Numbered from the stretch's first letter, positions 24,300 to 48,940 are shown. The stretch is DNA of 64,000 nucleotides from an uncultured Candidatus Saccharibacteria bacterium (GCA_964494945.1 CAZBTX010000004.1:27385-91384), one strand, 5' to 3'. Translations and numbers: made by a program. The notes: generated by a model from the sequence alone, not told the origin.

Positions 24300-24333
24300 A
24301 ACATTCTCATATTCTCAAGAATATGAGAATGTT
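24300..24333. promoter_or_regulatory. 34-bp perfect palindrome AACATTCTCATATTCT-CA-AGAATATGAGAATGTT 10 bp upstream of oxidoreductase ATG
   Basis: This was checked base by base. The arms are 16 bp with a 2-bp centre. Confidence 0.8.
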
Positions 24334-24342
24334 TTGAACTCA

Positions 24343-25770
24343 ATGGATAAAGGAGAAAATAAAGCAGTAGTTATTATCGGAGCCGGGCCGGCAGGGCTTA
24401 CGGCCGCGTATGAATTGGCTAAACGCGGCACCCGTTCAATTATTCTTGAAAAGGACTCGGTGGTCGGCGGCATCGCGCGCACGGTTCTCTATAAAGGATA
24501 TCGTTTTGACATCGGCGGGCACCGCTTTTTCACAAAAGTGGAGTGCGTGTTCAAAATGTGGCAGGAGGTGCTCGGTGCCGATTTTCTGAAACGCCCCCGG
24601 CTTTCCAGGATATATTACAAAGGAAAGTTCTTTTTTTATCCCTTAAAGGCGCTGGATGTCGTAAGAAAGCTTGGGTTGAAAGAAACATTTCTATCGGGTC
24701 TTTCCTACGTTTGGGCGCGCGTAAAAAAGCGGCCGAGGGAAGATTCGTTCGAAGATTACATTATCAATCACTTCGGGACTCGGTTATATCGCACTTTTTT
24801 CAAATCATATACCGAAAAGGTCTGGGGGATACCCTGTACCGAGATCAAGGCCGAGTGGGCGGCACAGCGCATCAAGGGACTTTCGCTTACGAGCCTTTTG
24901 AAGGCGACCCTCTTCGGCAACCGGAGAAATAAAATAAAGACCCTGATAGAAGAATTTTATTATCCCCGGCTTGGGCCCGGCATGATGTGGCAGAAAACCA
25001 AGGACTTGGCGGAACATTCCGGTTACGGAAAAGTGCTTTTTAAGACGGTGCCGGTTGCCATCCATCATGACAGTTCGCGAATAACCGCCGTTACGATACG
25101 CGGCGATAACGGCAAGGAAGAAACCATTGAAACAGACGCGGTGATATCAAGCATGCCGCTTTCCGAACTTTTCCGGCTTTTCCGGCCAGAGCTTGACGGG
25201 AAGATACTCAAAGCCGCCGCTTCTCTTCATTATCGGGATTTTATAACCGTAGCGCTTGTGCTGGATAAAGAGCATCTTTTTGGAGACAACTGGATATACG
25301 TGCACGAGCCGGGCGTGCTGCTCGGCCGCATTCAAAATTTCAAGAACTGGTCTCCAAGCATGGTGCCGGATGCTTCTAAAACCTGCCTGGGTCTTGAGTA
25401 TTTTTGTTTTACCTCGGACCCTATATGGAAAATGACGGACGAGGTCCTGGTGAATCTCGGCGCCGCAGAACTTGAGAAAATCGGCCTTGCCCAAAAGTCG
25501 GATGTCGTTGACGGAGCGGTGGTGCGGATGGAGAAAACCTATCCCGTGTACGACGATGCCTATGAAAAAGCCATGCCGCTCATAAAAGACGCGGCGGCGA
25601 AATTTCCCAATCTCTATCCGGTAGGCCGGAACGGCATGCACAAATACAACAATCAGGATCACGCTATGTATACCGCCATGCTGGCGGTAGAGAATATTTT
25701 CGGCGCGCGGCATAATCTCTGGGATGTCAACGTGGAGCGGGTGTATCACGAGGAGGTTCAGCGTACTTAG
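24343..25770 (+). CDS. FAD/NAD(P)-binding oxidoreductase (amine-oxidase/phytoene-desaturase-like)
   Basis: It carries [12 protein letters not shown]....GG, the dinucleotide-binding motif. The start was chosen at MDKGENK rather than the read-through at 24235. Confidence 0.6.
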
Positions 25771-25826
25771 AGAAACTTGATGGCTTGCTGGGCAGTTTCA
25801 CTAATTAGTTGTATAAATATTTTGGT

Positions 25827-26555
25827 ATGGAAATACTCGCAGTCATTCCCGCCAGAGGCGGGTCAAAGGGCATACCGCGGAAAAATATTAAACTGCTTTG
25901 CGGCAAGCCATTGATTGCTTGGACGATTGAGGAAGCAAAAAAGTCAAAGCATTTGACTCGCGTTATCGTTTCCACCGACGACGAAGAGATCGCGGAAGTT
26001 GCGAAACGATACGGCGCGGAAGTGCCTTTTATGCGTCCTCCCGAAATTTCCGGCGATTTGGCTACCGATGTAGAATTTCTGACGCACGCGCTGGATTTTT
26101 TGAAAGAAAAAGAAAATTACGAACCGGAAATAATTTTGCGTTTGCCGCCGACCTCACCCCTCCGCACGGCGGCGCATATTGATGAAGGCATAGAAGTTTT
26201 ATTAAAAAATCCCGAGGCTGACGCCTCGCGGCCCATGACGGAGGCTCCCAAGCATCCATATAAAATGTGGCGCGTTTCTGCGGAAGATGAGCGTTTTGTG
26301 GAGCCGTTTCTGCCAAAGTCATTTACTCAAATAGACGAACCGTATAACTTGCCGCGCCAGGCCTTGCCGAAAGCCCATATTCATACGGGTGCTATGGATG
26401 TGATGCGGCTTCGCACCGTACGTGAAATGAAATCAACCTCGGGCAAAAAGCTCGCGTATTTTTTCATGAAGCCGGAAGATTCCATAAATATTGATACGCC
26501 GGTTGATTTTGAATTGGCCGAGATCCTGCTGAAAAAGAGGATCGCGCAAGGGTAA
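25827..26555 (+). CDS. CMP-nonulosonic acid synthetase (acylneuraminate cytidylyltransferase family, NeuA/PseF/LegF-like)
   Basis: It carries ILAVIPARGGSKGIPRKN. Confidence 0.75.
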   Translation: MEILAVIPARGGSKGIPRKNIKLLCGKPLIAWTIEEAKKSKHLTRVIVSTDDEEIAEVAKRYGAEVPFMRPPEISGDLATDVEFLTHALDFLKEKENYEPEIILRLPPTSPLRTAAHIDEGIEVLLKNPEADASRPMTEAPKHPYKMWRVSAEDERFVEPFLPKSFTQIDEPYNLPRQALPKAHIHTGAMDVMRLRTVREMKSTSGKKLAYFFMKPEDSINIDTPVDFELAEILLKKRIAQG

Positions 26556-26642
26556 ATTCCGGGAAACCGGCGCCTTGCCAAAGTGGTTTCAAGTATATAG
26601 AATCTATCGGTCAATTTGGTATTGCGAAATTAAATATTCTTA

Positions 26643-27995
26643 ATGAGTGAGAAGAAGATTATTTTCATGACGGTGGAGACCAGCATGGCGGCCAAGGAGT
26701 TTTTGCGCTCGGGAGCGTTTCCTATTCTGAAATCCAAACGCCGCGTGGTGCTCTTCGTTCCGGCCGACAAAGTCGCTTACTACCAGAAGCAGTACGGCGG
26801 AGATTCGGTCTTCATTGAGCCCTTGCCGGAGATTAAGCGCCAAGGGCTGCATTTGATTATTAAAAATGTTGCCTTCAACAGTCTTTCTACGGCGAGCGTC
26901 TGGTATCGCATCTGGGAATCGTATTATTTGACCCATCGGCCGTGGAATCTTGCCATGCGCATTATTTTCTGGCACCTCGGCAAACTAAGAATTTGGCGCG
27001 AAGCCACACGCTTGGCCGAATGGCTGATGCGAGATGATGAGATCTGGCGAACAGTTTTTAATAAATACAATCCGGATTTTGTGCTGTGCACTAATGTCAT
27101 CGGCGAAGCCGACATCTCGTTGATGAAACATGCCAGGCGCCGCGGCAGGGGGGCTTACGCCATGATCCGCGGTTGGGACAACTTAACCTCCAAGGGCACC
27201 ATTCGCTTCAAGCCCGATCAGTTGATGGTTTATAACGAGAATATTAAGCGAGAGGCCGTTGAGTACGGCGACATGCGCGCCGAAAGGATAACCGTTGTAG
27301 GTATGCCGCATTATGATTCATACGTTAATTCCGGATTCTATTGGACGCGGGAGGAATTTTTTCTCCGCCTTGGTCTTGACCCGGCCAAAAAGCTGATTGT
27401 GTATGCCATGGGCGGCAATATCGCGGTTGAGGATCCTTACAATCACGCCAAGATGATAAATGACGCCATTGACAGAGGCGACTTGCCCCCAACTCAGCTT
27501 CTTATAAGAGCTCATCCCAAGTACGATATGACCGTATCGGATATCAGCCAGCTTAAGCACGTGAAATTTTATCAGCCCGGCAAAAAGGTCGCCGGCACCA
27601 GGGGCTGGGAGTTCGAAAAGGAAGACACGATGATCTTGATCAATACGGTTCGCTGGAACGACATTAACATCAACTCGGGTTCCGGCCAGACCCTGGAATC
27701 AGTCATGTTTGACCGGCCGGTGGTGATTTTGGGATTCAACGGATACAAACCCGTGCCTTGGCATAAAAATGTCGGAACCGGGCTCGATCTTTTCACGCAT
27801 TATCGGTACATTGTCCGTTCCGGCGGGGTTACCCGCGCCAATAACGAGCAAGAATTGATTGCGGCCTGTCGCGCCTATCTTGCAAATCCCGCATTGCATC
27901 GAGACGGCAGAAAGCGCATGGTGGAAGATATCGCGGGCAAACTCGATGGCAAATCCAGCGAGCGTCTGGCTACGGCGATTTTGTCGTTGGCGTAA
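26643..27995 (+). CDS. GT-B-like capsule/teichoic-type glycosyltransferase (TagF/KpsS-like); candidate nonulosonic-acid transferase
   Basis: It is 450 aa with no TM segment. Its position right after the CMP-sugar synthetase supports the call. The family assignment is inferred. Confidence 0.3.
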   Translation: MSEKKIIFMTVETSMAAKEFLRSGAFPILKSKRRVVLFVPADKVAYYQKQYGGDSVFIEPLPEIKRQGLHLIIKNVAFNSLSTASVWYRIWESYYLTHRPWNLAMRIIFWHLGKLRIWREATRLAEWLMRDDEIWRTVFNKYNPDFVLCTNVIGEADISLMKHARRRGRGAYAMIRGWDNLTSKGTIRFKPDQLMVYNENIKREAVEYGDMRAERITVVGMPHYDSYVNSGFYWTREEFFLRLGLDPAKKLIVYAMGGNIAVEDPYNHAKMINDAIDRGDLPPTQLLIRAHPKYDMTVSDISQLKHVKFYQPGKKVAGTRGWEFEKEDTMILINTVRWNDININSGSGQTLESVMFDRPVVILGFNGYKPVPWHKNVGTGLDLFTHYRYIVRSGGVTRANNEQELIAACRAYLANPALHRDGRKRMVEDIAGKLDGKSSERLATAILSLA

Positions 27996-28016
27996 CGTGA
28001 TAAGGCGGACAGTGCT

Positions 28017-28934
28017 ATGAATTTTGGCCGATCTATTTTAGGAACATTGTGGAATTCTTCCTCGGTCATGAGCTTAAGGGGTCTTTTCTTTGATTTATGG
28101 GAAATATTATCCAGATATCGTCACGAGAAACAGCGATTCATAAAGATGATGGGTTATCCTCTGGATCTCAAAAACCCGCGAAGTTTCAGCCAGCGTATAG
28201 TTTGGAAAAAAATTTACGACCGGAATCCTCTTTTGCCGATCGTCTGCGATAAATACAGGGTGAGGCAGTATATCAAAGATGTTTTGGGCGAAGAAGAAGC
28301 AGAGAAAGTCCTCATCCCGCTGCTGTATGCTTCTGATAATCCCGACACAATTCCTTTTGATAGTTTAAGCGGAGGATACATCGTGAAGCCCAATCATAAC
28401 TCGGGATCCAATATTATAGTTGAAAAAGGAGTAGCCCCTGACAGGGAAAAAATCATTTCAGATCTAAAAAAGCAGCTTAAATCGGCTTACGGGGTCTTTA
28501 AGCACGAGTGGGCTTACAAAAAAATAAAAAAAAGAATGTTTGTGATCGAAAAGCTGCTTAAAGACGCGAATGGGGGGATACTAAAAGATTATAAATTCCA
28601 TATGATCCATGGAAAATGCGCCTTTATACAAGTTGATTACGACCGATTTTCTAGTCATTCCAGGTCTCTTTACGACAGCAACTGGAATTTCATTAAAACG
28701 ACGCTGAAATATAAACAAGGCCCGATAACGTCCAGACCTTATGAGTTGGGAAAAATGCTTTTGCTGGCCGCCAAATTATCGAAAGGTTTTGATTATATAC
28801 GAGTAGATCTTTACAATATCGGGGATCGGATCTACTTTGGCGAACTGACCCAATATCCCGGATCGGGCGTAGAAAGGTTTACACCTCAGTCCTTTGATTT
28901 TGAACTTGGGAAGTATTGGACAAATAAAAAATGA
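28017..28934 (+). CDS. TupA-like ATP-grasp ligase
   Basis: It is ~300 aa with ..KPNHNSGSNIIV. and KYRVRQYI, the TupA pattern. It is strongly AT-rich at ~38% GC. Confidence 0.55.
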   Translation: MNFGRSILGTLWNSSSVMSLRGLFFDLWEILSRYRHEKQRFIKMMGYPLDLKNPRSFSQRIVWKKIYDRNPLLPIVCDKYRVRQYIKDVLGEEEAEKVLIPLLYASDNPDTIPFDSLSGGYIVKPNHNSGSNIIVEKGVAPDREKIISDLKKQLKSAYGVFKHEWAYKKIKKRMFVIEKLLKDANGGILKDYKFHMIHGKCAFIQVDYDRFSSHSRSLYDSNWNFIKTTLKYKQGPITSRPYELGKMLLLAAKLSKGFDYIRVDLYNIGDRIYFGELTQYPGSGVERFTPQSFDFELGKYWTNKK

Positions 28935-28965
28935 CAGAAAGAAAATTAAAAATCCGCTTTAAGGC

Positions 28966-30855
28966 ATGTGTGGAATCGTAGGCATCAGAGATCCTCGCGG
29001 CGTCCCCTCGGACGTTCTCCAGGCAATGACGCGCGAGCTCGTGCACCGCGGACCCGACGACGAGGGTTTCCTCTATCTCGATAAGGCGAAAGGCGAGTAT
29101 GTCGACGCGCCGAGTGCGCATGCGACCCTTGGCTTCCGGTTCCGGCGGCTCTCCATCGTTGACCTCGGCGCGACCGGCCACCAGCCGATGCTGACACCGG
29201 ACCGCGGCGCGGCGATCATCTTCAACGGCGAGATTTACAATTACCTCGAGCTCCGCGCGGAATTGGAGGCACGCGGTGTGCACTTCCGGGGACGCAGCGA
29301 CTCCGAAGTGATCCTCCACCTGCTCGCCCTTGAAGGTCTGGCCGCTCTCCCGCGCCTCAACGGGATGTTCGCCCTTGCCTTCCATGACCGTCGCACGGGG
29401 ACGCTAATCCTCGCGCGCGACCACGTCGGTATTAAACCGCTCTACTGGCTCCGCGAAGGCCCCGCGATTGTCTGGGCGAGCGAGCCAAAGGCCTTTCTCC
29501 ACTACCCCTCGTTCCGACCAGATGTCAACCGCGAGCGCCTCCACGAATTTTTCCTTTTCCGCCACGTCATTGGACCCGACACGCTTCTCCGCGGCGTGCA
29601 CTCGGTGGAGCCGGGAGGGTACGTACTTATTCGCGACGGCGAAGCGCGGGAAGTGCGCTGGTACAAGCCGCCACCGCACGAGCCCGAGCCATTAACGGAG
29701 GACGAGGCGGCGGCGCGCGTTGATGCCGCCGTCGGCGAAAGCGTGAAGGCGCAGCTCATGAGCGACGTGAAAGTCGGCTGTCAATTGTCCGGCGGTATTG
29801 ATTCCACCCTCATTTCCTGGTGGGCCGCGCGCCATCACGGCTCGCTTTTTGACTCCTTCTCCGTAAGCTTCGACGACCCGCGTTACGACGAGAGTCCGTT
29901 CATAGATGCCGTCGTCGCTAAGTTAGGGCTCGTCGGTCACACTACGCGCCTTGCCACTGATGAAATGGCGGCCTCGCTCCTCGACGCGGCGTGGCATCAC
30001 GATTTCCCCATCAGCCACCCCAACGCTCTCGGTATTTACGCGCTCGCTCGCGAGGCCCGCCGCCACCACGTAACTGTACTTCTCAGTGGCGAGGGCGCGG
30101 ACGAGGTGTTCGGCGGATACGCGCACTACAACCGCGCCGCGTGGCTCGCGCGCCTCAATGCTCTACCCGGCGGCCTCGAACTCGCCCGGTGCCGCGGCCT
30201 CGCGCGCGCGGGCGACCTCGCTCGGGCACTCGTTCTGCTCTCCGCTATCTACGACCCCAAAGTGGTGCGCGAGGCCTGTCCATGGTTCGACGGCGAGCAG
30301 GCACTCCGCGAGCGTCTTGAGCTTTGGGCGGCGACGCCGGAGACGGACGCCCTCGAGCACCTCATGGCCTATGAGCGGCGCGCGTACATGGAGGAATTAC
30401 TCCACCGCCAGGACCGCATGTCGATGACGCACTCTATCGAGAACCGCGTGCCGTACCTCGATCCGCGCGTCCTCGCACTCGCCCGGCGTCTCCCCACGCG
30501 CCTCAAGGTTGCCGTCGGGTTGTTCCCACGCCGCGGCACAGCACCCCGCGCCACGAAGCCGATACTTAAGCGCCTCGTCGCGAACCGCTTCGGCGATAAT
30601 TTCGCCTACCGCGCGAAGTCCGGCTTCGCGTTACCGCTCCGCGCGATCTTCGTAGCACCCGCGTTCGAGGCGACGTGGCCGGCGATCCGCGACGCTGTCG
30701 TCGCACTCTCTGTCGCGGAGGCGCCCGCACTCGATGCCTTGAAGGAGCAGGCACTCCGCGAGGGCGGCGACGCGGCGAAGCTTCTATGGACATTTACAGC
30801 GCTCGGCGCGTGGTGGCGCGGCATCTCGCGCGTAGGCGCGGTATTACGGACGTGA
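28966..30855 (+). CDS. asnB: Asparagine synthase (glutamine-hydrolysing) family amidotransferase, compositionally foreign (~65-70% GC)
   Basis: It has the MCGIVGI start and the SGGIDS PP-loop. Many spurious ORFs overlap it on both strands, as expected for a high-GC segment. Confidence 0.8.
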   Translation: MCGIVGIRDPRGVPSDVLQAMTRELVHRGPDDEGFLYLDKAKGEYVDAPSAHATLGFRFRRLSIVDLGATGHQPMLTPDRGAAIIFNGEIYNYLELRAELEARGVHFRGRSDSEVILHLLALEGLAALPRLNGMFALAFHDRRTGTLILARDHVGIKPLYWLREGPAIVWASEPKAFLHYPSFRPDVNRERLHEFFLFRHVIGPDTLLRGVHSVEPGGYVLIRDGEAREVRWYKPPPHEPEPLTEDEAAARVDAAVGESVKAQLMSDVKVGCQLSGGIDSTLISWWAARHHGSLFDSFSVSFDDPRYDESPFIDAVVAKLGLVGHTTRLATDEMAASLLDAAWHHDFPISHPNALGIYALAREARRHHVTVLLSGEGADEVFGGYAHYNRAAWLARLNALPGGLELARCRGLARAGDLARALVLLSAIYDPKVVREACPWFDGEQALRERLELWAATPETDALEHLMAYERRAYMEELLHRQDRMSMTHSIENRVPYLDPRVLALARRLPTRLKVAVGLFPRRGTAPRATKPILKRLVANRFGDNFAYRAKSGFALPLRAIFVAPAFEATWPAIRDAVVALSVAEAPALDALKEQALREGGDAAKLLWTFTALGAWWRGISRVGAVLRT

Positions 30856-31049
30856 TGCGGCTTCGCACCATACGTGAAATGAGATCCACCTCGGGCAGAA
30901 AACTCACGTATTTTTTAATGAAGCTCGAGGATTCCATAAATATAGACAATCCGATTGATTTTGAGTTGGCAGGGCTTATTCTGCGGCGTCGCCTCGGGGA
31001 CGCATCCTGGAAAACCGGGAGGTCTCTTTTGCGGTTCTATAAAATATAG
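30847..31049 (+). pseudogene. Remnant 3' fragment of a second cytidylyltransferase gene (~85% nt identity to 26395-26540)
   Basis: The remnant translates as DVMRLRTIREMRSTSGRKLTYFLMKLEDSINIDNPIDFELA. This parallels the intact gene's DVMRLRTVREMKSTSGKKLAYFFMKPEDSINIDTPVDFELA. Confidence 0.75.
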
Positions 31050-31108
31050 GCCCGTATTGACGTTTTTGTGGTTTAAGGGTACTAATAGCAAGTATTTAGA
31101 ACTATCGG

Positions 31109-32698
31109 ATGGGTGACCACGCGATGCAGTCAACACTAGGGAACAAAGGAAAATTTGACTTCAACGGCCTTTTTACCTTTGAGATGGCGAACAACCATCA
31201 GGGGTCGGTGGAGCACGGAAAACGCATCATCCAGGAGATGGCGGCTTTGGCGCGAAAACACGGTGTTCGCGCCGCGGTTAAACTCCAATTCAGGGACTTG
31301 GATACCTTTATTCATCCCGATTACCGCGAGAGCACCGAAAATAAGCACATTCAGCGTTTTCTTTCTACGCGGCTTTCGGAGGATGAATTCGGTGAACTTT
31401 TGGCGGAAATAAAAAGCCACGGACTGCTTACGATGGTAACGCCCTTTGACGAAGCGTCCGTGGACGCGATTGAGCGTCTGGGCGCGGATATCATAAAGAT
31501 AGGCAGTTCATCGGCGCATGATTGGCCACTGCTTGAAAGAATTGCCGATACGGGAAAGCCGGTGATTTGCTCCACCGGGGGTTTAATGATCCGTGATATT
31601 GACAGAGTTGTCTCGTTTTTTCAGCACCGCGGCGTGCATTTTGCCATAATGTACTGTGTTTCCATGTACCCGACGCCGAATAATAAACTTCATTTGAATC
31701 AAATTGCCATCATGCGCAATCGTTATCCGGACATAACGGTTGGATGGTCCACGCACGAAAGCCCGTCGGATACCCATACGGTGCGCCTGGCTTACGCCAA
31801 GGGCGCCAGGATATTTGAAAAACACGTGGGAGTGCCGACGGATGAGATTAAATTGAATGCTTACTCCGCAACACCCGAAGAAGCAGACGCCTGGGTCGCG
31901 GCTTATAAGGAAGCGGTTGAGGCCTGCGGTGATAACGCGGAACGCGAAATTGATGAGAAAGAAACAGCCGATTTGAAGTCCCTGATGCGCGGAGTTTACG
32001 CCAAAAAGGAAATTAAAGCCGGTGAGCCGATAAAACGCTCGGACGTATTTTTCGCCATGCCGATAATGGAGGGGCAATTAACCAGTGGCAAATGGAAAGA
32101 GGGGCTTTTGGCTGACCGCGATTATCACGTTCACAAACCCGTAAGCGAGCGCATTTACCCCAATCATAAAAGTAAGAAAGAAATAATTTACTCCACCATA
32201 CACGCCGTAAAGGGCATGCTGAATACCGCGCGCATCCCGCTGGGGCATGATTTTTCCGTGGAGATCTCGCATCACTACGGCGTGGAAAACCTGCATAAGA
32301 TAGGATGCCTTTTGATAGAATGCATTAACCGCGAATACGCCAAGAAGATAATTGTCCAGTTGCCGGGACAGTGGAACCCGGTGCACTACCATAAGAAAAA
32401 GGATGAAACGTTCCAACTGCTTTACGGCGAGTTGTATGTGGAAATTGAAGGCAAAAAGAAAATGCTCTATCCCGGCGATTCGCTTTGGGTTCCTCGTGGC
32501 GTTTGGCACTCTTTCGGTACGGCGACTGGAGCCATCTTTGAAGAAATTTCCACCGCGAGTTTCAACGACGATTCATTTTATGTTGACCGCGAGATAGCCA
32601 AAATGGCTAGGGACGACAGGAAGACCCGGCTCCAAAATTGGGGTCGGCATCAGTTTGATGAGGTTAAAGAAGAAGAGCTAGCTAAGAGTTTGCGCTGA
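31109..32698 (+). CDS. NeuB-family nonulosonic acid synthase fused to C-terminal cupin domain
   Basis: It carries FEMANNHQGS and has the NeuB TIM-barrel length. The C-terminus carries the cupin signature HYH...LYPGDSLWVPRGVWHSF. Confidence 0.7.
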   Translation: MGDHAMQSTLGNKGKFDFNGLFTFEMANNHQGSVEHGKRIIQEMAALARKHGVRAAVKLQFRDLDTFIHPDYRESTENKHIQRFLSTRLSEDEFGELLAEIKSHGLLTMVTPFDEASVDAIERLGADIIKIGSSSAHDWPLLERIADTGKPVICSTGGLMIRDIDRVVSFFQHRGVHFAIMYCVSMYPTPNNKLHLNQIAIMRNRYPDITVGWSTHESPSDTHTVRLAYAKGARIFEKHVGVPTDEIKLNAYSATPEEADAWVAAYKEAVEACGDNAEREIDEKETADLKSLMRGVYAKKEIKAGEPIKRSDVFFAMPIMEGQLTSGKWKEGLLADRDYHVHKPVSERIYPNHKSKKEIIYSTIHAVKGMLNTARIPLGHDFSVEISHHYGVENLHKIGCLLIECINREYAKKIIVQLPGQWNPVHYHKKKDETFQLLYGELYVEIEGKKKMLYPGDSLWVPRGVWHSFGTATGAIFEEISTASFNDDSFYVDREIAKMARDDRKTRLQNWGRHQFDEVKEEELAKSLR

Positions 32699-32757
32699 AA
32701 CGCCGAACTTTTTGCTTGCTCTTTTTCAGGTATGCGAAACCAAAGGAGACAACTCTC

Positions 32758-39874: not shown

Positions 39875-39972
39875 GCCGATTCCCACTATAGAAACACCCC
39901 CGCTAGCGGGGGTGTTTCTATATACGAGGGTTCATAAATTAGCTATATTTAAGTTAATCTAGTTGGTTTTTT

Positions 39973-40094
39973 AACGGCATGATCCCGTTAGAAGCCGCGA
40001 TTGCGAAAGATAGGTTAAAAGTATGTCAATTTTTTCATTTAATATTCTATAAAGCAGAAAATGCGTTTGATCGTGATCTGCTTCTAACGGGATG
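39973..40094. repeat. Palindromic TIR element copy A (ATCCCGTTAGAAGC ... GCTTCTAACGGGAT), hpf ATG inside right arm
   Basis: The 14-bp perfect terminal inverted repeats at 39982-39995 and 40080-40093 were verified. Confidence 0.75.
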
Positions 40095-40505: not shown

Positions 40506-40551
40506 TTTCCATATTCTTATAAAATTGCGTATCATGCCCTAATGAAAGGAG

Positions 40552-40974: not shown

Positions 40975-40975
40975 C

Positions 40976-41012
40976 CGGGGCCGCATTCTTCGGGGTGCGG
41001 CCGCTTTTTTTA
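40976..41012 (+). terminator. Rho-independent terminator (GGCCGCA-loop-TGCGGCC + T8)
   Basis: It is a hairpin followed by GCTTTTTTTA. Confidence 0.7.
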
Positions 41013-41141
41013 TTTAAACTTTATGACTATTATTGGTTTTTGTCATAGCAAAGTTCGTGAATAGAAAATCTGAATTATAAAATGCGAAATTTATTTTAAA
41101 GTTGTCAAGAATATTCACATTGCCATCGTTGGTTTTTCGTC

Positions 41142-41163
41142 AAGTTTGAGTTATCCACAGTTG
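41142..41163. promoter_or_regulatory. Second copy of DnaA-box-containing motif AAGTTTGAGTTATCCACAGTTG
   Basis: It was read from the sequence. Confidence 0.5.
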
Positions 41164-41312
41164 AAGTTTTACGGGATTCTTGCAAAAATGAGAGCAGGAG
41201 TGAAAAAGAACGCTGAGACACTTAACGAAAGCGTTTAACATAAGGAAGTGCGAAACCAACGTCGTTCGGCGCGGTACGCGCTACCCCATGCGGAACGTTT
41301 CTCGAAAAGGAA

Positions 41313-41687
41313 ATGCATAAGTCGCTTCATATCCTCGCGGACCTCTATAACTGTCGCGGGGACGAAAAATATCTCACAAAGGTAAGCACGGTAAAAAAGA
41401 AAGTTTTGCAGATGATAAAGCGGGCCGGCTTTAAAGTTGTGGCTTCGCGTTTTCATAAATTTCCACCCGGCTCCAACGCGACCGAAGGCGGTATTACGGG
41501 CGTTATCGTGGTTTCGGAGTCGCACTTGACCATCCATACCTGGCCGGAAAAACATTACGTCAATTTTGACGTGTTCTTTTGCAGTTATTCGCGGGACAAC
41601 TCGCATAAGACCAGAAACATCTTCCGCGAATTTTCCTCGCTCTATAAACCAAAAAAACTTCGTAAGCGTGAAGTTTGGAGGGATTAA
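41313..41687 (+). CDS. speH: S-adenosylmethionine decarboxylase proenzyme, small bacterial/archaeal type
   Basis: It has the ESHLTIHTWPE signature with the pyruvoyl-precursor Ser. Confidence 0.75.
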   Translation: MHKSLHILADLYNCRGDEKYLTKVSTVKKKVLQMIKRAGFKVVASRFHKFPPGSNATEGGITGVIVVSESHLTIHTWPEKHYVNFDVFFCSYSRDNSHKTRNIFREFSSLYKPKKLRKREVWRD

Positions 41688-41822
41688 TCCCGTTAGAGGT
41701 CAGGTTTGCTCCGCGCAAACCGGCGGCAACCAAAACGGTTCCATAATAAGTAGTTTTAGAAAGGGTACTCGGTATTTCAAAGCAAGTTAACTTTCGAGGT
41801 TAGTTGCCTACCTCTAACGGGA
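41688..41822. repeat. Palindromic TIR element copy C (TCCCGTTAGAGG ... CCTCTAACGGGA) between speH and secA
   Basis: The 12-bp perfect terminal inverted repeats were verified. It is a variant of the 39982 and 49318 element. Confidence 0.7.
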
Positions 41823-41909
41823 CTAACCCAAGGCTCTAAAATAGCCCCGATGAGCCGGGGTCGTTTTTGGCTTCCTATAATCGCTTTTTTGTCTTAGAAT
41901 AATCCAGTT

Positions 41910-44642
41910 ATGGCCCTATTGGCTAAGATTTTCGGAGACGCCAATGAGCGCGCGGTGCGTGAGTATTTACCTATGGTGGCGGGTATCAACGCGCTTGAGC
42001 CGGAATTTAAAAAGTTATCGGAGGAGAATTTAAAAGCAAAAACAGCCGAATTCAAAGAGCGGATGAGCAAAGGAGAAACGTTGGATGACCTGCTCCCGGA
42101 GGCCTTTGCGACCGTTCGCGAAGCGTCCCAAAGAACGCTCGGCCAGCGGCATTTTGACGTGCAGTTAATGGGCGGTATGGCTTTGCACCAAGGAAAAATT
42201 TCAGAGATGAGGACAGGCGAAGGCAAAACTCTGGTAGCCACACTACCCGCGTATCTGAACGCGCTATTGAGTAAGGGAGTTCATATCGTAACGGTTAACG
42301 ACTATTTGGCGCGGAGAGACGCCGTGTGGATGGGGCAGATTCATCATGCCTTGGGGCTGACAGTGGGAGTATTGAATCATGAGGCGTCGTATATTTATGA
42401 TCCAACACACGAAAATCCAAATGATCAAAACAACTTAGACAAAACACGGGATACATTAGGAGCATTTAAGGTGGTGCATGAATTTTTGCGTCCCGTGACG
42501 CGCCGCGAAGCGTATGAGGCCGACATAACTTACGGCACCAATAATGAATACGGTTTTGATTATCTTCGCGACAACATGGTGTATGCAACGGCCCAACTCT
42601 CTCAAAGAGAGCACAATTTCGCCATCATTGACGAGGTGGACTCCATTTTAATAGATGAAGCCAGAACCCCGCTGATAATTTCGGCTCCCGATGAGGAATC
42701 CGGCGAGCTTTACAAGACCTTTTCGCAATTTGTGCCGCGCCTTTCAGCGCCCGACGACTTCACGATTGACGAAAAACTAAAAGCCGTGGCTATTACAGAG
42801 CATGGCATTGATAAGGTGGAGGGCATCATCGGCAAGAAACTTTACGAAGGCGGGCACGAAGCCGAGTCCATTAAATTAGTGCATCATCTAGAGCAAGCCC
42901 TAAGAGCTCATTCTTTGTATTTAAGAGATAGGGATTATGTGGTTAAGGATGGCGAGGTAATTATTGTTGACGAATTTACGGGGCGTTTAATGCCGGGCAG
43001 GCGCTGGTCGGAGGGATTGCATCAAGCGATTGAAGCCAAAGAGGGAGTTCAAATTCAGCGCGAATCAAAGACACTTGCCACTATTACCTTCCAGAATTAT
43101 TTCCGCATGTACCCGAAGTTAGCTGGTATGACGGGAACGGCCGCGACCAACGCCGAAGAATTTCATAAGGTTTATAAATTGGAAGTTGTTTCCGTTCTCA
43201 CTCACCGTCCTAATGTCCGCGAGGACAGGTCGGACCTGGTATTTCGCACCGAGAAGGGGAAATTCACAGCGCTGGCTCGAGAAATAAAACGTCTTAATCA
43301 AATTGAGGCGTCGGTGTTAATCGGCACTGTTTCCATTGAAAAGAACGAGCGGCTTTCCGAGATATTAAAGCGTGAAGGCGTGCCGCATAGGGTGTTAAAC
43401 GCCAAGAATCATGAAGAGGAAGCGGCGATTATCGCGCAAGCCGGGCGCAAGGGAGCTGTCACGGTTGCCACAAACTTAGCCGGTAGAGGTGTGGACATAA
43501 TTTTAGGCGGTAATCCACCAACCGCTGAAGAAGCGGAATTGGTAAAACAAAATGGGGGATTGCATGTTTTCGGCACGGAGCGGCACGAAGCGCGCCGCAT
43601 TGATAACCAGTTAAGAGGCCGCTCCGGACGCCAAGGCGACCCCGGCGTTACTCAATTTTATCTTTCACTGGAAGACGACCTAATGCGCGTTTTCGGCTCT
43701 TCACGCATTAAAAGCATGATGGAAAGTTTCGGCATTCCCGAAGACGAGCCGATAGAAAATCGCATGGTCTCTAAAGCCATTGAATCGGCCCAGGCCAAAA
43801 TTGAAGGATTCCATTTTGACGCCCGGAAGCATGTCTTGGAATACGACGACGTTATGAATAAACAGCGCGAAGCGATTTACAGAATGCGGAAATCCATTTT
43901 AGGTACAGCCGAAAATCCCGCGGTGCTACAGGTTCAAGTGCATGTAATGATACGCGACGAGGCATCAGCCATTGCCGAGGCACATGCAGCTGCTGAAAAT
44001 TTGGAAGAAGGCATTGATGAATTGAAGAAATTTATTGCCGCGTTCATCCCCGGCGATTTTGAGAACGAAGACCTTAAAAAACTGGATGAGGCCAAGAATC
44101 TCGGACGAGAAGGCGCGCGCGAGTTTTTGCAAGAAATAGTCGCCGAAATTTTGACGGCGGCGTATACGAGAAGAGAGAAGGATTTGGGTGAGCCGTTCTC
44201 GCAAGCGGTGCGAACGGTGATGCTCCAAACCATTGATTTTATTTGGATAGACCATCTGACGGAAATGGACCATTTACGCGATTCGGTGCGACTCCGCGCC
44301 TACGGCCAGCGCGACCCGTTGGTGGAATATAAAAATGAATCGGTGCGACTCTTTAGATTATTGCAAGCCAGCATCCGCCAATATTCCATCCAAACAATAT
44401 TTAGGGTGGGGGAGAAAACAGGAAACAGAACACAGGACACAGCGCGTCAAGAACCCAACTTGATTTTCCAATCGGCTAAAGATGAATCAAATTCCGCCGG
44501 CGCTAAAGTATATACGCCGTCAGCCAAAAAAGAACCCGGCCGCAACGACCCCTGCCCGTGTGGAGCGGTCAATCCCGCGACAGGGGAAGTATATAAATGG
44601 AAGAAATGTGGCATGGTTAATGCCTCATATCATAAGAAGTGA
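41910..44642 (+). CDS. secA: Preprotein translocase ATPase SecA
   Basis: It has the DEAD-like motor motifs and the C-terminal zinc motif CPCG...C. The protein is 910 aa. Confidence 0.9.
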   Translation: MALLAKIFGDANERAVREYLPMVAGINALEPEFKKLSEENLKAKTAEFKERMSKGETLDDLLPEAFATVREASQRTLGQRHFDVQLMGGMALHQGKISEMRTGEGKTLVATLPAYLNALLSKGVHIVTVNDYLARRDAVWMGQIHHALGLTVGVLNHEASYIYDPTHENPNDQNNLDKTRDTLGAFKVVHEFLRPVTRREAYEADITYGTNNEYGFDYLRDNMVYATAQLSQREHNFAIIDEVDSILIDEARTPLIISAPDEESGELYKTFSQFVPRLSAPDDFTIDEKLKAVAITEHGIDKVEGIIGKKLYEGGHEAESIKLVHHLEQALRAHSLYLRDRDYVVKDGEVIIVDEFTGRLMPGRRWSEGLHQAIEAKEGVQIQRESKTLATITFQNYFRMYPKLAGMTGTAATNAEEFHKVYKLEVVSVLTHRPNVREDRSDLVFRTEKGKFTALAREIKRLNQIEASVLIGTVSIEKNERLSEILKREGVPHRVLNAKNHEEEAAIIAQAGRKGAVTVATNLAGRGVDIILGGNPPTAEEAELVKQNGGLHVFGTERHEARRIDNQLRGRSGRQGDPGVTQFYLSLEDDLMRVFGSSRIKSMMESFGIPEDEPIENRMVSKAIESAQAKIEGFHFDARKHVLEYDDVMNKQREAIYRMRKSILGTAENPAVLQVQVHVMIRDEASAIAEAHAAAENLEEGIDELKKFIAAFIPGDFENEDLKKLDEAKNLGREGAREFLQEIVAEILTAAYTRREKDLGEPFSQAVRTVMLQTIDFIWIDHLTEMDHLRDSVRLRAYGQRDPLVEYKNESVRLFRLLQASIRQYSIQTIFRVGEKTGNRTQDTARQEPNLIFQSAKDESNSAGAKVYTPSAKKEPGRNDPCPCGAVNPATGEVYKWKKCGMVNASYHKK

Positions 44643-44718
44643 AGCGGAGTCCATCCGTAGCGAAGCGTAGGAGGATGGAAGCGGGAAGAAATATAAAAAG
44701 TGTCACGGAACGTAAAAT

Positions 44719-44752
44719 AACATTCCAACATTCTGCAGAATGTTGGAATGTT
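44719..44752. promoter_or_regulatory. 34-bp perfect palindrome AACATTCCAACATTCTG/CAGAATGTTGGAATGTT
   Basis: It was verified. It shares its AACATTC...GAATGTT ends with the 24300 palindrome. Confidence 0.75.
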
Positions 44753-44805
44753 TAGGGGTTTATCTTAAGCGAATTGAGGTGTGGCGCAGAGATATAGAGC
44801 AATAA

Positions 44806-44814
44806 TGGTATTAT
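44806..44814 (+). promoter_or_regulatory. Extended -10 TGGTATTAT 7 nt upstream of ATG (possible leaderless transcript)
   Basis: It matches a sequence motif. The same TGGTATAAT is seen at 48926. Confidence 0.3.
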
Positions 44815-44820
44815 CCTTAT

Positions 44821-45168
44821 ATGACTATGGAAGTTGTTAGAGAGCTGATATCGCGCGAGAAACTTAAAAGTATTGCCGAGAATCAATTTGGTAATTTGGT
44901 GAAGGCCGTAGTTGACATAGAACAAGAGATTATGGTCATTGGCGGGGAATTGCACGCGGATGAAGAAGCCGTATTGATTGAGCAAGGATCAAATCAGCGA
45001 AATCTTTGGGGCATTAATCTCTATCCCGCCAAAACCGGAGACGATTTTATAGAGTTTGATTCAATGATCAATATACGTCCTTCGCAAAATAATAACTCAG
45101 GAAGCGTGGGAGATGCTGGAATACGGGAGAAAATACGCGCTATCATCGCAAAATTAATAAAGGATTAA
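44821..45168 (+). CDS. Hypothetical small protein
   Basis: It is an ORF only. Confidence 0.35.
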   Translation: MTMEVVRELISREKLKSIAENQFGNLVKAVVDIEQEIMVIGGELHADEEAVLIEQGSNQRNLWGINLYPAKTGDDFIEFDSMINIRPSQNNNSGSVGDAGIREKIRAIIAKLIKD

Positions 45169-45169
45169 T

Positions 45170-45502
45170 ATGCTGCATCAGCACGCAGAACTTTCAAGGG
45201 GCGGATGGCAGAAACTTTCTTTGGTGGAACAACTTGGGAATATCGGGAGCGAAGTTGGAAGAGCCGCGAAGTGGCAAGGGAAGGATGACGAGAACTTCAA
45301 AGCGTCTTTCGTGCGCGCGCTGGATTTATTAGATCTAACCATGCAGGATCCGCGCTGGAGCAAGAGCTTAAAAGAAATCGCTAGAGTCCGGGAGCTGTTG
45401 TGTGAAGCGGTATTCGGCGACAGAAAAAAATATAATACAACACTCGAGGACATCGATCGCTATTTTTACCAGTTTGCGCTAGCCGCACGTTTAAAAACTT
45501 AG
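45170..45502 (+). CDS. Hypothetical small helical protein
   Basis: It is an ORF only and sits 2 nt after the previous gene. Confidence 0.35.
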   Translation: MLHQHAELSRGGWQKLSLVEQLGNIGSEVGRAAKWQGKDDENFKASFVRALDLLDLTMQDPRWSKSLKEIARVRELLCEAVFGDRKKYNTTLEDIDRYFYQFALAARLKT

Positions 45503-46100
45503 TTTCATTTATATCGCATAACAAAAAGTGACAACCGATTCGCGCGTCTCAACACAAACCTAACCACTACCATACTCTAGAGTATGGTAGTGGAACAAAG
45601 TTGAGGGTTTTTTAATACAGAGGGGTATCGGAAGATGGTTGCGATAAAATAAATCTTTGTTTGACAGGATTTTGTGACTTTGCTATAAAGGATTTGCTAT
45701 GCAGATAGCAGTACGACAATTGAAGCATTGGTGGCATCCTCTTTGTGAGAGAGGCCAGTGAGTTGTCGTCCCAATAGGCGGAAAAGCTCCCCAAGAACGT
45801 TGGCCTCTTTCAAAAGAGGTTTTCGCGTTTTTAGGGAGCTTTTTGCGTATATCGCGCCAGGAGGTGCGAAAAACTAAGAAAGGGGGTGGTGCCGCATGCA
45901 CGGCCACGGCGGAAAGTAACTGGGGGTCGAGAAGTTTACTCAATCCATGAAAGGGGGTGAGAATAATGCACGGCTGGGGCAAGTAGGCAGTACGGAGGTG
46001 CGGACATCGGTCCGCACCTCCCCATAAATCCCCTATGATACAATTTATGTTTATTGAAACAAGCCGCAAAAAGATTTAGACTAAGCCAACTCTCAAAAAC

Positions 46101-48686
46101 ATGCCTAGTCCGAAGAAATTAAATGTACGTCTCCCCAGGAACGTAAAACCCGAGCGTTATCGTTTGGTACTTCACCCAGATCTAAAGCGTTTTACCTTCC
46201 AGTGCGAGGAGACGGCTTATTTAAACCTTGCGAAGCCGACAAGGGAAATTGTTTTGCATGGGAAGGATTTAAGAGTTTCTTCAGCGAAAGCCGCGCGGGG
46301 AAAAGAAGAAATTAAGGCAAAGAAAATTTCATATGACGCGAAAGCTGAAACTATAACGTTTTCGTTCCCCTGGGTGATTCCAAAGGGGAAAATCGAACTT
46401 CAATTGGAGTTTACGGGTACTTTAAATGATCAGATGCGCGGGTTTTATCGAAGCCGCTATGAGAAAGATGGTAAAGAGCATTGGCTTGCGACAACGCAAT
46501 TTGAAGCGACAGACGCGAGAAGGGCATTTCTCTGCGTTGATGAGCCGGAAGCAAAAGCGGTTTTTGATGTAACACTCATGACTCCGCGGGGGCATACGGC
46601 AATTTCCAACACGCTGCCCGTGCATGTGGCGGAACATGAATCCGGATACCAAATCGTGAAATTTGCCCCGACGCCAAAAATGTCAACCTATCTTCTGGTG
46701 TTCATCGTGGGCGATTTCGAATTTGTAGAAAAAAAGACCTCCCGCGGGACACTGGTGCGGGTGTTCGTAACCCCCGGGAAAAAACATCAGGCCATGTTCG
46801 CGCTTGATGTAGCCGCGAAAGTCCTTACGTTCTTTGAAAATTACTTTGCGATCAAGTATCCGTTGCCGGTGCTCGATATGATTGCCATTCCGGATTTCTC
46901 CGCCGGAGCGATGGAAAACTGGGGAGCGGTAACTTATCGGGAGTCCGCGATTTTATTCGATCCGAAACATTCTTCGACCGGGAACAAACAATGGATTGCC
47001 TTGGTAATCTCGCATGAGTTAGCCCATCAGTGGTTCGGGAATTTAGTAACGATGGAGTGGTGGACCCATCTCTGGTTGAATGAAGGATTTGCTTCTTATA
47101 TTGAATACTTGGCAGTGGATCATCTCTTCCCGGAATGGGATATCTGGACCCAATTTGTGGTGCTTGATCTTGGCGCAGCCCTGAATCTGGATGCTCTAAA
47201 AAATACCCACCCCATTGAAGTGGAAGTCCATCATCCTTCTGAAATCAGTGAGATATTCGATGCCGTCTCATACCAAAAGGGTGCGTCCATTATTCGCATG
47301 CTTGCCGATTATCTGGGAGAGAAAAGTTTCCGCGACGGACTCCGGCACTATCTGAAAAAGCATGCCTATGCCAACGCAAGGACCGAAGATCTTTGGCTTG
47401 CGCTGGAACACGTCACAAAAAAGCCCGTGCGGAAGATTATGGCGGCATGGACGGGAAAGGCAGGTTATCCCCTGGTAAGAGCCAAGGAAACGAAAAAGGG
47501 CGTCGTGATTTTGCAGTCGCGGTTTTTCTCAAGCGCTATTATTCGGAAACAGACGAAAGATTCTACGGTTTGGAATATTCCGATTAATTTTCTGAAAGAG
47601 AGCGCCTCAAAACCCGAACGATTTCTTTTGGATAAAAGAGAAAAGCCATTTCCGGTCCGTCTAGAAGACGGCGAATGGGTATCATTGAATGCTGGAGCCT
47701 CAGGCGTTTATCGGGTTGATTATCCTGCTCCGATGTTGCATCGCCTTCGCGAAGCCATCGAAGAAAGGTCGCTTTCAGCGCGGGAGCGCCTGGCGATCGG
47801 ATCGGATACTTTTTCGCTTGCGGAATCCAGCGAACTTCCGACAACCGAGGCGCTTCTTCTTGCTAAAGCATACAAGGAAGAAACGGATTACTCTGTCTGG
47901 TCGGATTTGGATTCACATTTTAGTTATTTGGAAGGCTTACTGGCGGATGAGAATTTTTTAGATTCGTATCGGACGTATCTTCGCGGTATATATCAGGCAA
48001 TTGCGAAGCGAATGGGTTGGGAGAAAAAGAAAGGCGAAAAACATACAGATTCGCTACTGCGAAGTTTAGCGCTGTGGGGGTTTGGCTCTCGCGGGGAAGA
48101 TGAAAATACAGTCAAAGAGGCGAAACGTAGGTTCCGTGAGCTGCAAAAAGGGAAGCATCTTGATCCCGATATTCGCGGAGTTGTCTATGGTTTAGCAGCT
48201 CAACATGGCGGAAAAGCCGAGTATGATTGGTTTGTGAAGAGACACCAAGCCGAGCGATTGAACGAAGAAAAAGTGCGCCTTCTCCGGACATTGGGAAGGT
48301 TTTCCAATACATCGCTTCTTCGTAAAACTCTTAATTACACATTTTCAAAACATGTGCGCACTCAAGACGATATCTTCGGAATTCAGAGTGTTGCCGGAAA
48401 TCCGAAAGGCAGAGGACTCGCCTGGAATTTTGTAAAAGCGAATTGGAAAAAAATTCTAGAGCGGCACGGAAGGGGCGGACACGTACTCCCGAATTTTGTG
48501 AAGGTCGCTCAAATTTTCAATACCAAAGAAAAAGCAAAGGACGTGCGAGAGTTCTTTCGAACACACGAAGCGCCCGGCGCTATTCGCGCGGTGGAGCAAA
48601 CTATTGAGCGCATTGAGTCAAAAGCAGATTGGCTTTCCCGCGACCGGACAAAAATTAGAGAATGGCTAAAAAATACAAAAATTTAG
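46101..48686 (+). CDS. pepN: Aminopeptidase N (M1 family zinc metallopeptidase)
   Basis: It carries GAMEN and HELAHQWFGN...E, the HEXXH-18-E motif. Confidence 0.9.
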   Translation: MPSPKKLNVRLPRNVKPERYRLVLHPDLKRFTFQCEETAYLNLAKPTREIVLHGKDLRVSSAKAARGKEEIKAKKISYDAKAETITFSFPWVIPKGKIELQLEFTGTLNDQMRGFYRSRYEKDGKEHWLATTQFEATDARRAFLCVDEPEAKAVFDVTLMTPRGHTAISNTLPVHVAEHESGYQIVKFAPTPKMSTYLLVFIVGDFEFVEKKTSRGTLVRVFVTPGKKHQAMFALDVAAKVLTFFENYFAIKYPLPVLDMIAIPDFSAGAMENWGAVTYRESAILFDPKHSSTGNKQWIALVISHELAHQWFGNLVTMEWWTHLWLNEGFASYIEYLAVDHLFPEWDIWTQFVVLDLGAALNLDALKNTHPIEVEVHHPSEISEIFDAVSYQKGASIIRMLADYLGEKSFRDGLRHYLKKHAYANARTEDLWLALEHVTKKPVRKIMAAWTGKAGYPLVRAKETKKGVVILQSRFFSSAIIRKQTKDSTVWNIPINFLKESASKPERFLLDKREKPFPVRLEDGEWVSLNAGASGVYRVDYPAPMLHRLREAIEERSLSARERLAIGSDTFSLAESSELPTTEALLLAKAYKEETDYSVWSDLDSHFSYLEGLLADENFLDSYRTYLRGIYQAIAKRMGWEKKKGEKHTDSLLRSLALWGFGSRGEDENTVKEAKRRFRELQKGKHLDPDIRGVVYGLAAQHGGKAEYDWFVKRHQAERLNEEKVRLLRTLGRFSNTSLLRKTLNYTFSKHVRTQDDIFGIQSVAGNPKGRGLAWNFVKANWKKILERHGRGGHVLPNFVKVAQIFNTKEKAKDVREFFRTHEAPGAIRAVEQTIERIESKADWLSRDRTKIREWLKNTKI

Positions 48687-48940
48687 CTACCTTTTCTCTC
48701 TGTATTGCACATCAAAAAACGCCACGGGGAGTAAGTGCCACAAACATCCTTACATACTTGAGAATATAAGGATGTTTGTGGAAATGAAATATAAAAATGC
48801 GGGGTGTTAGATACGGAGGAGCGTATAAAAAGAATTCAAAAATAGACCTGCGGATGTTTTTAAACCCCTGCCCCGCGATTCGCGGGGCAGGGGTTTTATT
48901 AGAACATACAATCCCACAATTTTTATGGTATAATTTGACA

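Follow-up and report, generated by a model that had tools for sequence, protein, structure and literature searches.

In the present study, we analyzed a stretch of 64,000 nucleotides from an uncultured Candidatus Saccharibacteria bacterium (GCA_964494945.1 CAZBTX010000004.1:27385-91384; hereafter, the window), which carries three long intergenic palindromes, here named P1, P2, and P3. The analysis confirmed that the three palindromes belong to a phylum-wide family of cis elements with a candidate cognate protein, a winged helix-turn-helix (wHTH) protein of about 88 amino acids (aa) whose gene is bracketed by copies of the palindrome. We rate this pairing as probably one of the repressor-operator type, with an unusual architecture and placement.

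The kinship of P1, P2, and P3 had already been proposed in a first-pass annotation of the sequence, and it is borne out by a single 34-bp template, AACATNCNNNNATNCTNNAGNATNNNNGNATGTT (that is, AACATNC-N4-ATNCT-NN-AGNAT-N4-GNATGTT), which fits all three with 0 mismatches, 20 positions being identical in P1, P2, and P3. Their positions, re-read from the sequence, proved to be correct and are as follows:

24300 to 24333, no strand: P1, type I palindrome, 16-2-16, AACATTCTCATATTCT CA AGAATATGAGAATGTT
44719 to 44752, no strand: P2, type I palindrome, perfect 17+17, AACATTCCAACATTCTG CAGAATGTTGGAATGTT, the commonest variant of the family
48738 to 48781, no strand: P3, type II-like palindrome, 21-2-21, with 2 mismatches
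48743 to 48776: core of P3, AACATCCTTACATACT TG AGAATATAAGGATGTT, aligned base for base with P1 and P2

Some details had to be amended. P1, described as a strictly perfect 34-mer 10 nt from the next gene, is actually of the form 16+2+16, with a CA center that is not self-complementary, and it lies 9 nt from the ATG at 24343. As for P3, its extent was retained, whereas the description of its center as a loop of 14 nt is better replaced by 21+2+21 with two mismatches, the pairing being extended by the flanks CCACA/TGTGG. The template is laid out as two 16-bp arms around a 2-bp center, and each arm consists of two 8-bp units in tandem (for example, AACATTCC AACATTCT), the four units of the inverted repeat reading AACATTCY NAYATTCT / AGAATRTN RGAATGTT. 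By calculation, a perfect inverted repeat with arms of at least 16 bp is expected about 5e-5 times per 64 kb. Allowing up to 3 mismatches, we found no further template match in the window, and 0 of 100 shuffles matched, a statistic that is circular in that the pattern was derived from P1, P2, and P3 themselves; a search for the outer units alone gave no extra copy in the window either.

A genome-wide search had been proposed in the first-pass annotation; a scan across species genomes revealed that the palindromes are not confined to the window. A 20-base template was scanned against one genome per species, for 185,579 species, and matched at least 120 loci, compared to about 0.5 expected by chance (our own estimate, 596 Gb / 4^20). 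Among the matches listed, nearly all came from metagenome-assembled genomes (MAGs) of Patescibacteria (the candidate phyla radiation, CPR), in particular from Saccharibacteria, Nomurabacteria, Giovannonibacteria, Brennerbacteria, Liptonbacteria, Zambryskibacteria, Uhrbacteria, Doudnabacteria, and Paceibacterota, while about 11 were labeled Kiritimatiellia, Verrucomicrobiota, Omnitrophota, Bdellovibrionales, Gammaproteobacteria, or Nanoarchaeota. The strict copy set used below comprises 141 sequences, namely, P1, P2, P3, and 138 further copies, all of them 16-2-16, and the consensus of the 138 extracted copies is AACATTC[CT]NA[CT]ATTCT-NN-AGAAT[GA]TN[GA]GAATGTT. The identical sequence of P2 occurs in many classes of Patescibacteria and in some MAGs labeled Kiritimatiellia or Verrucomicrobia, the identical 34-mer of P1 occurs twice in a single Saccharibacteria MAG locus (L063), and the site is unchanged across loci with a GC content of 27 to 59%. 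A rarer subtype, AACATCCTTAYAWACT (type II), corresponds to the P3 type; this subtype and its ATACT-TG-AGAAT asymmetry were also detected in L029, L030, L111, L017, L058, and L080. No description of the family was found in the searchable literature, which leaves out most subscription journals.

These data also settle whether the three palindromes might be AT-rich intergenic hairpins that are alike by coincidence and have no common function. Many other long perfect hairpins occur in the window, which would favor such an explanation; however, they do not fit the template, and the 20 positions common to the three copies, together with the matching loci found elsewhere in large excess over expectation, refute a chance likeness, to which we give practically no credit.

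Regarding copy density, the window holds 3 copies in 64 kb, a locus of 8 kb usually holds 1 to 4, and from each of three contigs of about 600 kb, one stretch was listed. Short-read assemblies were observed to end inside the palindromes, as in L001 (a Logan contig matching window positions 44725 to 48772) and in many regulator contigs of 0.5 to 1.5 kb; the only public contig with the DUF5674 protein of the window starts in P2 and ends in P3. In locus L079 (positions ~1360 to 1440), at least 9 tandem 8-bp units (TTCTAACA) follow the stop codon of the regulator, and for this reason the 8-mer can be regarded as the basic, expandable repeat unit. Hybrid hairpins, with outer AACATTCC/GGAATGTT units and a GC-rich or shortened inner stem, were noticed in L061 (downstream of 3254 to 3511) and in L015 (3300 to 3335), where the shortened copy follows secA, at the position occupied by P2 in the window.

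Several copies overlap the end of a conserved small open reading frame (ORF), ending with FMKTF and a stop codon. By tblastn, this ArsR/MarR-like winged-helix gene adjoins a palindrome in 34 of the 120 listed loci, and 38 of the 141 strict copies lie within such wHTH cassettes; with looser matching, nearly every complete wHTH gene is preceded by one palindrome, and a second one overlaps or closely follows its stop codon. DNA similarity among the cassette loci ends at the palindromes, which delimits a unit of about 360 bp. Profile and sequence comparisons identified the wHTH protein as a distant relative of ArsR/SmtB/MarR: HTH_5 scores were 26.0 bits (cutoff, 22) for the L043 protein and 15.7 bits for the L100 protein, NF033788 gave 33.9 bits (cutoff, 55), and the nearest solved sequences are members of ArsR/SmtB (CmtR, ArsR, and CadC), with a PDB E value of only about 0.01. 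Moreover, the AlphaFold model is a winged helix (pLDDT, 90.6) whose predicted fold matches the dimeric repressors MarR, MexR, MepR, CadC, HlyU, and SmtB, which bind double-stranded DNA. In databases, the protein is named only "winged helix-turn-helix transcriptional regulator" or "hypothetical protein"; the family comprises at least 640 clusters at 90% identity and 146 representatives at 50% identity (E ≤1e-10). The consensus of 52 members contains no cysteine and three conserved histidines, none of which falls in the known metal- or thiol-sensing motifs (alpha3N and alpha5).

Between the upstream palindrome and the ATG, a TATAAT-like box ending 5 to 8 nt before the start was found in 15 of 29 wHTH genes, compared to 10% of random positions. 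Since the −10 box ends so close to the ATG, the regulator mRNA appears to be leaderless, with the upstream palindrome over the −35/spacer region, and the palindrome thus appears to occupy the position expected for an autoregulatory operator. The central CTTGAG was considered as a directional −35 box of general validity, and this was rejected, since −10-like hexamers occur on the TG side no more often than on the control side and cassette centers read CA as often as TG; it does fit the promoters of type II regulators (TTGAGA, 16 nt, TATAAT) in L029, L096, L111, and L202. Apart from TspO, the genes downstream of the regulator are diverse, and no conserved partner gene was found among them.

Protein and site vary together. 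Proteins with the recognition region ANEKT[IL]GEHT (L029, L096, L111, and L202, the last a contig from a viral collection) are accompanied by type II palindromes, with L110 as the exception (4 of 5 proteins of this kind), while all 25 other proteins have type I palindromes on their flanks; in L047 and L121, whose proteins carry EHVRKL, the outer units read AACATACC. Furthermore, three distant paralogues with 30 to 40% identity (in L066 and L031, and the second gene of L111) are accompanied by palindromes that are wholly different in sequence, even though the layout is that of the main family: a palindrome, a −10 box, and a leaderless gene whose stop codon carries this palindrome a second time. 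The paralogue palindromes are TTCTATTCCAGTGTTTTGCAAAACACTGGAATAGAA, a 46-bp perfect palindrome around CTTATTCGTACGAATAAG, and CTAATTCGCGCGAATAGGAGAA, and they were located at 11 to 46 and 300 to 335 in L066, at 2691 to 2736 in L031, and at 3770 to 3795 and 4075 to 4100 in L111. Taken together, covariation and paralogues are the strongest, if indirect, evidence gathered here that each protein would recognize the repeat by which it is bracketed, and the paralogues point to a wider superfamily of regulator and site pairs.

Genes reading away from the palindromes are mostly diverse, the recurrent ones being NUDIX (6 of 82), TspO (4), and ABC exporters (3). TspO is present in 9 palindrome loci, 8 of which have a site within the gene or no more than 60 nt from it. 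In L203, L073, and L029, the site lies within the TspO reading frame and is translated as KQHSNILENVRML, located in the loop after the second transmembrane helix; the same holds by position for L202, while the TspO of L110 has no internal site. The genes with an internal site are as follows:

L203, 10467 to 10964
L073, 121 to 615
L029, 5332 to 5874
L202, 823 to 326

A module of site, regulator, site, and TspO with its internal site recurs in three loci, L029, L202, and L203, the last being part of the closed genome CP066687.1, and the subtype of the TspO-internal site follows that of the neighboring regulator. The intragenic position suggests that the site may act there as a roadblock. As a separate observation, positions 1 to 9500 of L203, in this closed Giovannonibacteria genome, form a defense island beside the regulator/TspO module, with type I/IIG restriction-modification, SMODS/SLATT CBASS-like, LexA-like S24 protein, Fic, and GIY-YIG genes.

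On these grounds, the palindrome is most likely a double-stranded DNA site of the ~88-aa ArsR/MarR-like winged-helix family, probably bound by two dimers. That the protein acts through recognition of DNA, with autoregulation at the regulator gene and occlusion or roadblock elsewhere, is what we hold to be probable. At its own gene, the upstream copy would cover the −35/spacer of a leaderless promoter and lead to autoregulation; copies located elsewhere (inside TspO, after stop codons, or before starts) would act by promoter occlusion or as roadblocks for RNA polymerase. In agreement with recognition at the DNA level, the fixed ATACT TG AGAAT asymmetry and mixed-type arms are kept, features that speak against a pure hairpin, which would not favor them. 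In the window, P1 would control the FAD-oxidase gene, P2 would lie at the 3' end of secA and limit read-through toward the DUF5674 gene, and P3 would belong to the 3' region of the M1 aminopeptidase gene. The corresponding regulators, a type I and a type II protein, would be encoded outside the window.

The surroundings of the three palindromes in the window include the following features:

24227 to 24247, + strand: canonical terminator-like hairpin whose tail is T rich, lying between P1 and the glycosyltransferase gene upstream of it
24343 to 25770, + strand: FAD-dependent amine-oxidase-like gene (Pfam Amino_oxidase, NAD_binding_8), ATG 9 nt after P1
44680 to 44715, + strand: relic of a second SecA C terminus, GSGKKYKKCHGT, out of frame with secA and ending in a stop codon 3 nt before P2
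44806 to 44823, + strand: extended −10 box TGgTATTAT, 6 nt, and then the ATG of the DUF5674 gene; leaderless-type start (from sequence and Pfam DUF5674)
48862 to 48896, no strand: canonical GC-rich bidirectional terminator hairpin flanked by A/T runs, 80 nt past P3

P1 is the only one of the three copies near a gene start and the one most like a promoter-proximal operator, with the FAD-oxidase gene as the candidate regulated gene. It is located 53 nt past the hairpin at 24227 to 24247, and, because of this separate terminator-like structure, it is not needed to terminate the upstream gene. Reading of the sequence between P1 and the FAD-oxidase ATG gave no Shine-Dalgarno sequence and no −10 box, and no convincing promoter was identified at P1. 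Among 80 metagenome relatives of the FAD-oxidase gene, 49 to 59% identical and mostly of high GC content, none has the palindrome, a result that is uninformative on the conservation of P1. P2 lies 77 nt past the annotated stop codon of secA, a gene that terminates at 44642 and has a SEC-C zinc finger of its own there; the relic of a second C terminus suggests a past rearrangement or duplication at the 3' end of secA. The −10 hexamer of the DUF5674 gene lies 56 nt downstream of the end of P2, which therefore does not overlap the core promoter of this gene; a −10 box located 6 nt before the ATG is a layout common to the DUF5674 gene and the wHTH genes. P3 is found 52 nt past the stop codon of the M1 aminopeptidase gene (46101 to 48686), and, as the separate terminator of that gene is at 48862 to 48896, P3 falls within its 3' region. 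With respect to other genomes, the SecA of the window is 54 to 63% identical to that of Saccharibacteria-type loci, and the DUF5674 gene pair also occurs in a Parcubacteria locus; the window thus very probably stems from a Patescibacterium.

Several features of the family and of the window are unlike those of operators and weigh against the DNA recognition hypothesis, and some of them point to a hairpin, a roadblock, or a copy-and-paste origin. According to gene contexts based on crude ORF calls, 37 of 134 copies start at most 5 nt, and 70 of 134 at most 50 nt, from the stop codon of a gene reading toward them, and the solitary copies lie between tandem, convergent, and divergent genes in 37, 18, and 5 cases, compared to 40, 11, and 9 expected from the lengths of the intergenic regions; in several convergent pairs of long ORFs, there is room for little besides the palindrome. 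The palindrome follows orthologous stop codons while the downstream gene differs, namely, those of secA (three times), of a ~590-aa protein (four times), and of MsrB (twice), and transketolase and others also have a palindrome past the stop codon in different genomes. Past secA, it is found in the window, in L093 (where the protein ends with KKCHGA, 2 nt before the palindrome), and in L017, and in the shortened form in L015. Furthermore, the variable positions are mostly complementary within a copy, including P1 to P3 of one genome (for the pair of positions 6 and 29, TA in 124 copies, AT in 8, CG in 7, and others in 2), and in 42 of 141 copies the complementarity extends by at least 3 bp into the nonconserved flanks, compared to a mean of 11.4 and a maximum of 22 in shuffles. 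Such compensated changes and flank pairing fit selection for a hairpin or a cruciform, but the same features could be a by-product of the template-switch "perfecting" of quasi-palindromes, an established idea. Near-perfect 34-bp copies are hard to make by point mutation alone, which suggests some copy-and-paste process, and copies exist in which only the outer 8-mer surrounds a GC-rich stem. In the window itself, the center of P2 is about 85 nt upstream of the next start, no gene start is found near P3, and no member of the regulator family is encoded in the 64 kb as judged by tblastn.

In the light of these observations, the proposals of the first-pass annotation can be qualified. The view of the palindromes as binding sites of a dimeric protein is well, though indirectly, supported by the link of the family to a winged-helix fold and by covariation, whereas their interpretation as an operator set for the window genes gains no comparable support, given that the window contains no regulator gene, that its three copies do not occupy classical operator positions, and that only P1 is near a gene start. 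Recombination sites, the alternative offered in the same annotation, are in our view less likely. A relationship to promoters is apparent for the upstream copy of the cassette, which lies over the −35/spacer, but solitary copies favor 3' ends and convergent pairs, a distribution unlike that of operators. The remark that the arms are too long for a terminator and lack T-runs is correct for P1 to P3 but does not extend to the approximately 20% of the family with A/T-run flanks.

Two other explanations, which are not mutually exclusive with recognition at the DNA level, have to be weighed at this point. It is possible, though we regard it as unlikely, that the palindromes work as nucleic acid hairpins, that is, as bidirectional terminators or stabilizers of mRNA 3' ends resembling repetitive extragenic palindromic (REP) elements, with the wHTH gene as an insulated unit or a modulating factor. 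The many copies right after stop codons, the enrichment of convergent contexts, the position conserved past secA despite different downstream genes, the compensated changes in the arms with pairing into the flanks, and the hybrid copies with GC-rich inner stems are all in favor of this explanation, and P1 to P3 as RNA are predicted to fold stably (−18.5 to −26.3 kcal/mol, z of −4.7 to −8.8; for P1, −18.5 kcal/mol and z = −5.8). A T-rich tail is present in 12 of 56 oriented members, but about 80% of the copies lack such a tract, including P1 to P3 on the + strand, where no real T-run was found; P2 alone passes a lenient terminator scan, on the − strand only. Stems are AT rich (only 5 GC pairs of about 15), G:U is not preferred over A:C on the sense strand (10 versus 15 mismatches in 70 tandem-context copies), and separate canonical terminators stand beside P1 and P3. 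A terminator needs no fixed sequence, yet the site is invariant over a superphylum and over the whole range of GC content. Counting positions with regard to termination, 38 copies belong to cassettes, whose upstream member stands before the −10 box of the wHTH gene and hence outside that mRNA, and TspO reading frames account for at least 3; moreover, palindromes specific to each paralogue would be left unexplained. No Rfam family reached the gathering score in the window, the E-value mode around P2 returned only chance matches to microRNA hairpins far under the threshold, and a tRNA scan found no tRNA at the sites of P1 to P3.

Less likely still, in our opinion, is that the palindromes represent the ends or scars of a mobile or recombining cassette, or selfish insertions similar to REP or Rickettsia palindromic elements, with P1 to P3 as solitary remnants of little regulatory meaning. 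Homology that stops exactly at the palindromes of the ~360-bp unit, with differing neighbors, is what would be expected of such a cassette, as are the occurrence of cassettes with 78 to 83% protein identity both in CPR and in MAGs labeled Kiritimatiellia or Verrucomicrobiota (some non-CPR labels may, however, be binning errors), the frequent vicinity of restriction-modification, Abi, Fic, and CBASS-type genes, the four palindromes that separate successive genes in L063, the in-frame site within TspO, and the assemblies that break at the palindromes. The 2-bp center also recalls the crossover sites of serine recombinases. Nevertheless, neither the cassette nor the solitary copies are associated with a recombinase or transposase, the apparent copy number is low (single stretches were listed in contigs of ~600 kb), only one viral contig has the site, copies keep their positions in genomes with only 54% identity between their SecA proteins, and the type of the TspO-internal site follows the neighboring regulator, which implies an ongoing function.

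A further reading, which we put forward only tentatively, considers the palindrome and the winged-helix protein as a sequence-specific roadblock or insulator across Patescibacteria, that is, a protein-dependent and conditionally reversible terminator, spread by copy-and-paste or as a cassette. Bound after stop codons, between convergent genes, and inside TspO, the protein would bring RNA polymerase to a halt or gate its passage; the P2 copy past secA and the P3 copy past the M1 peptidase gene would then serve as gates, not as promoter operators.

Other known classes of site were examined and rejected. A viral origin was discarded because only one viral contig has the site, and this contig could derive from CPR, as it also contains a regulator cassette together with a gene resembling TspO; a sequencing-adapter artifact was discarded because the site lies within long contigs of many independent assemblies. 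A dif/Xer site would have a different spacer length and fewer copies, and an integron attC site is not compatible with the flanks of P1 to P3, which do not fit RYYYAAC/GTTRRRY, nor with the neighboring genes, among which there is no integrase. DNA uptake sequences are species specific, and a genome has hundreds to thousands of them, including copies within genes, whereas here the density is low and the sequence is common to a whole phylum. A LexA/SOS box was rejected on the basis of the wHTH protein, which has 88 aa and no S24 peptidase domain.

Comparison with characterized systems helps to define what is distinctive here. The operators of ArsR/SmtB proteins (SmtB, CzrA, CadC, and CmtR) are 12-2-12 inverted repeats. 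The system described here shares with them a small winged-helix protein, with CmtR, ArsR, and CadC as the nearest solved relatives and a predicted fold like CadC, HlyU, and SmtB, an N-2-N inverted-repeat site, and the autoregulation predicted from a site over the protein's own promoter; the four half-units of the palindrome suggest two dimers per site. Different from ArsR/SmtB, the arms have 16 bp, with two 8-bp iterons each, the protein has no cysteines or recognizable metal site and falls under most curated family cutoffs, a second site lies at the stop codon of the gene, with others inside TspO and after unrelated genes, and the site has hardly changed across a superphylum. Structurally, the protein comes closest to MarR, MexR, and MepR (TM-score of about 0.8 over the query), and MarR proteins are dimeric, have palindromic operators, and are usually autoregulated; however, the 88-aa protein does not have the long N- and C-terminal dimerization helices of the ~140-aa MarR proteins, and the target TM-score is about 0.5. 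A long inverted repeat that is nearly identical over many phyla together with its repressor is also known from CIRCE/HrcA, and CIRCE is reported to work at two levels, as an operator in DNA and as an element of mRNA. Nonetheless, CIRCE is 9-N9-9 rather than 16-2-16, sequence and repressor family differ, and CIRCE is found ahead of chaperone operons rather than within genes or at their 3' ends.

With REP/RAYT systems, of which a genome contains tens to hundreds of copies, the family has in common short, dispersed intergenic palindromes, often past stop codons, and an associated gene flanked by two copies. In this case, however, the flanked gene encodes an 88-aa winged-helix protein that lacks an HUH/Y1 catalytic domain, a GTAG motif is absent, the copy number appears low, and the sequence is phylum-wide rather than species specific. 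Rickettsia palindromic elements are similar in that a palindromic repeat is found in frame inside a protein gene (TspO here), but they have 100 to 150 bp compared to 34 bp, only one such gene family was seen here, and the subtype of the internal copy follows the neighboring regulator, suggesting a function over a selfish insertion.

Further elements of the window were noticed during the analysis. A 36-bp perfect palindrome, TATAGAAACACCCCCGCT/AGCGGGGGTGTTTCTATA, occupies positions 39887 to 39922, between divergent genes and 170 nt upstream from a hibernation-factor (S30AE) gene; its sequence bears no relation to P1 to P3, and it could be the site of another regulator or the terminator of an unannotated transcript. 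Between convergent genes, at 45564 to 45593, a 30-bp perfect palindrome, CCACTACCATACTCT/AGAGTATGGTAGTGG, has CATACT and the CCAC/GTGG ends in common with P3 and does not fit the family template. The stretch from 48926 to 49070 contains an extended −10 box, TGgTATAAT (48926 to 48934), about 130 nt with no convincing ORF, and a hairpin (49010 to 49059) with a T-run; it is a candidate small RNA with no match in Rfam. Finally, a 49-aa ORF at 49149 to 49298 has a strong Shine-Dalgarno sequence (AAAGGGGGGATG) and encodes a hydrophobic segment; a hairpin lies downstream, at 49304 to 49329, and the product of the ORF is possibly a small membrane protein.

Almost nothing is known about gene regulation in Patescibacteria, a group that makes up a large part of bacterial diversity and of which very few members have been cultured. 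The present analysis provides a near-invariant cis element, a regulator candidate, TspO as a recurrent target, and a distinctive layout in which two sites bracket an apparently leaderless gene, and the system is testable in the few transformable Saccharibacteria. From a practical point of view, the palindromes break short-read assemblies and could serve to mark CPR contigs. Should the sites prove to be active at gene 3' ends or within genes as well, these minimal genomes would combine operator, insulator, and terminator in one element.

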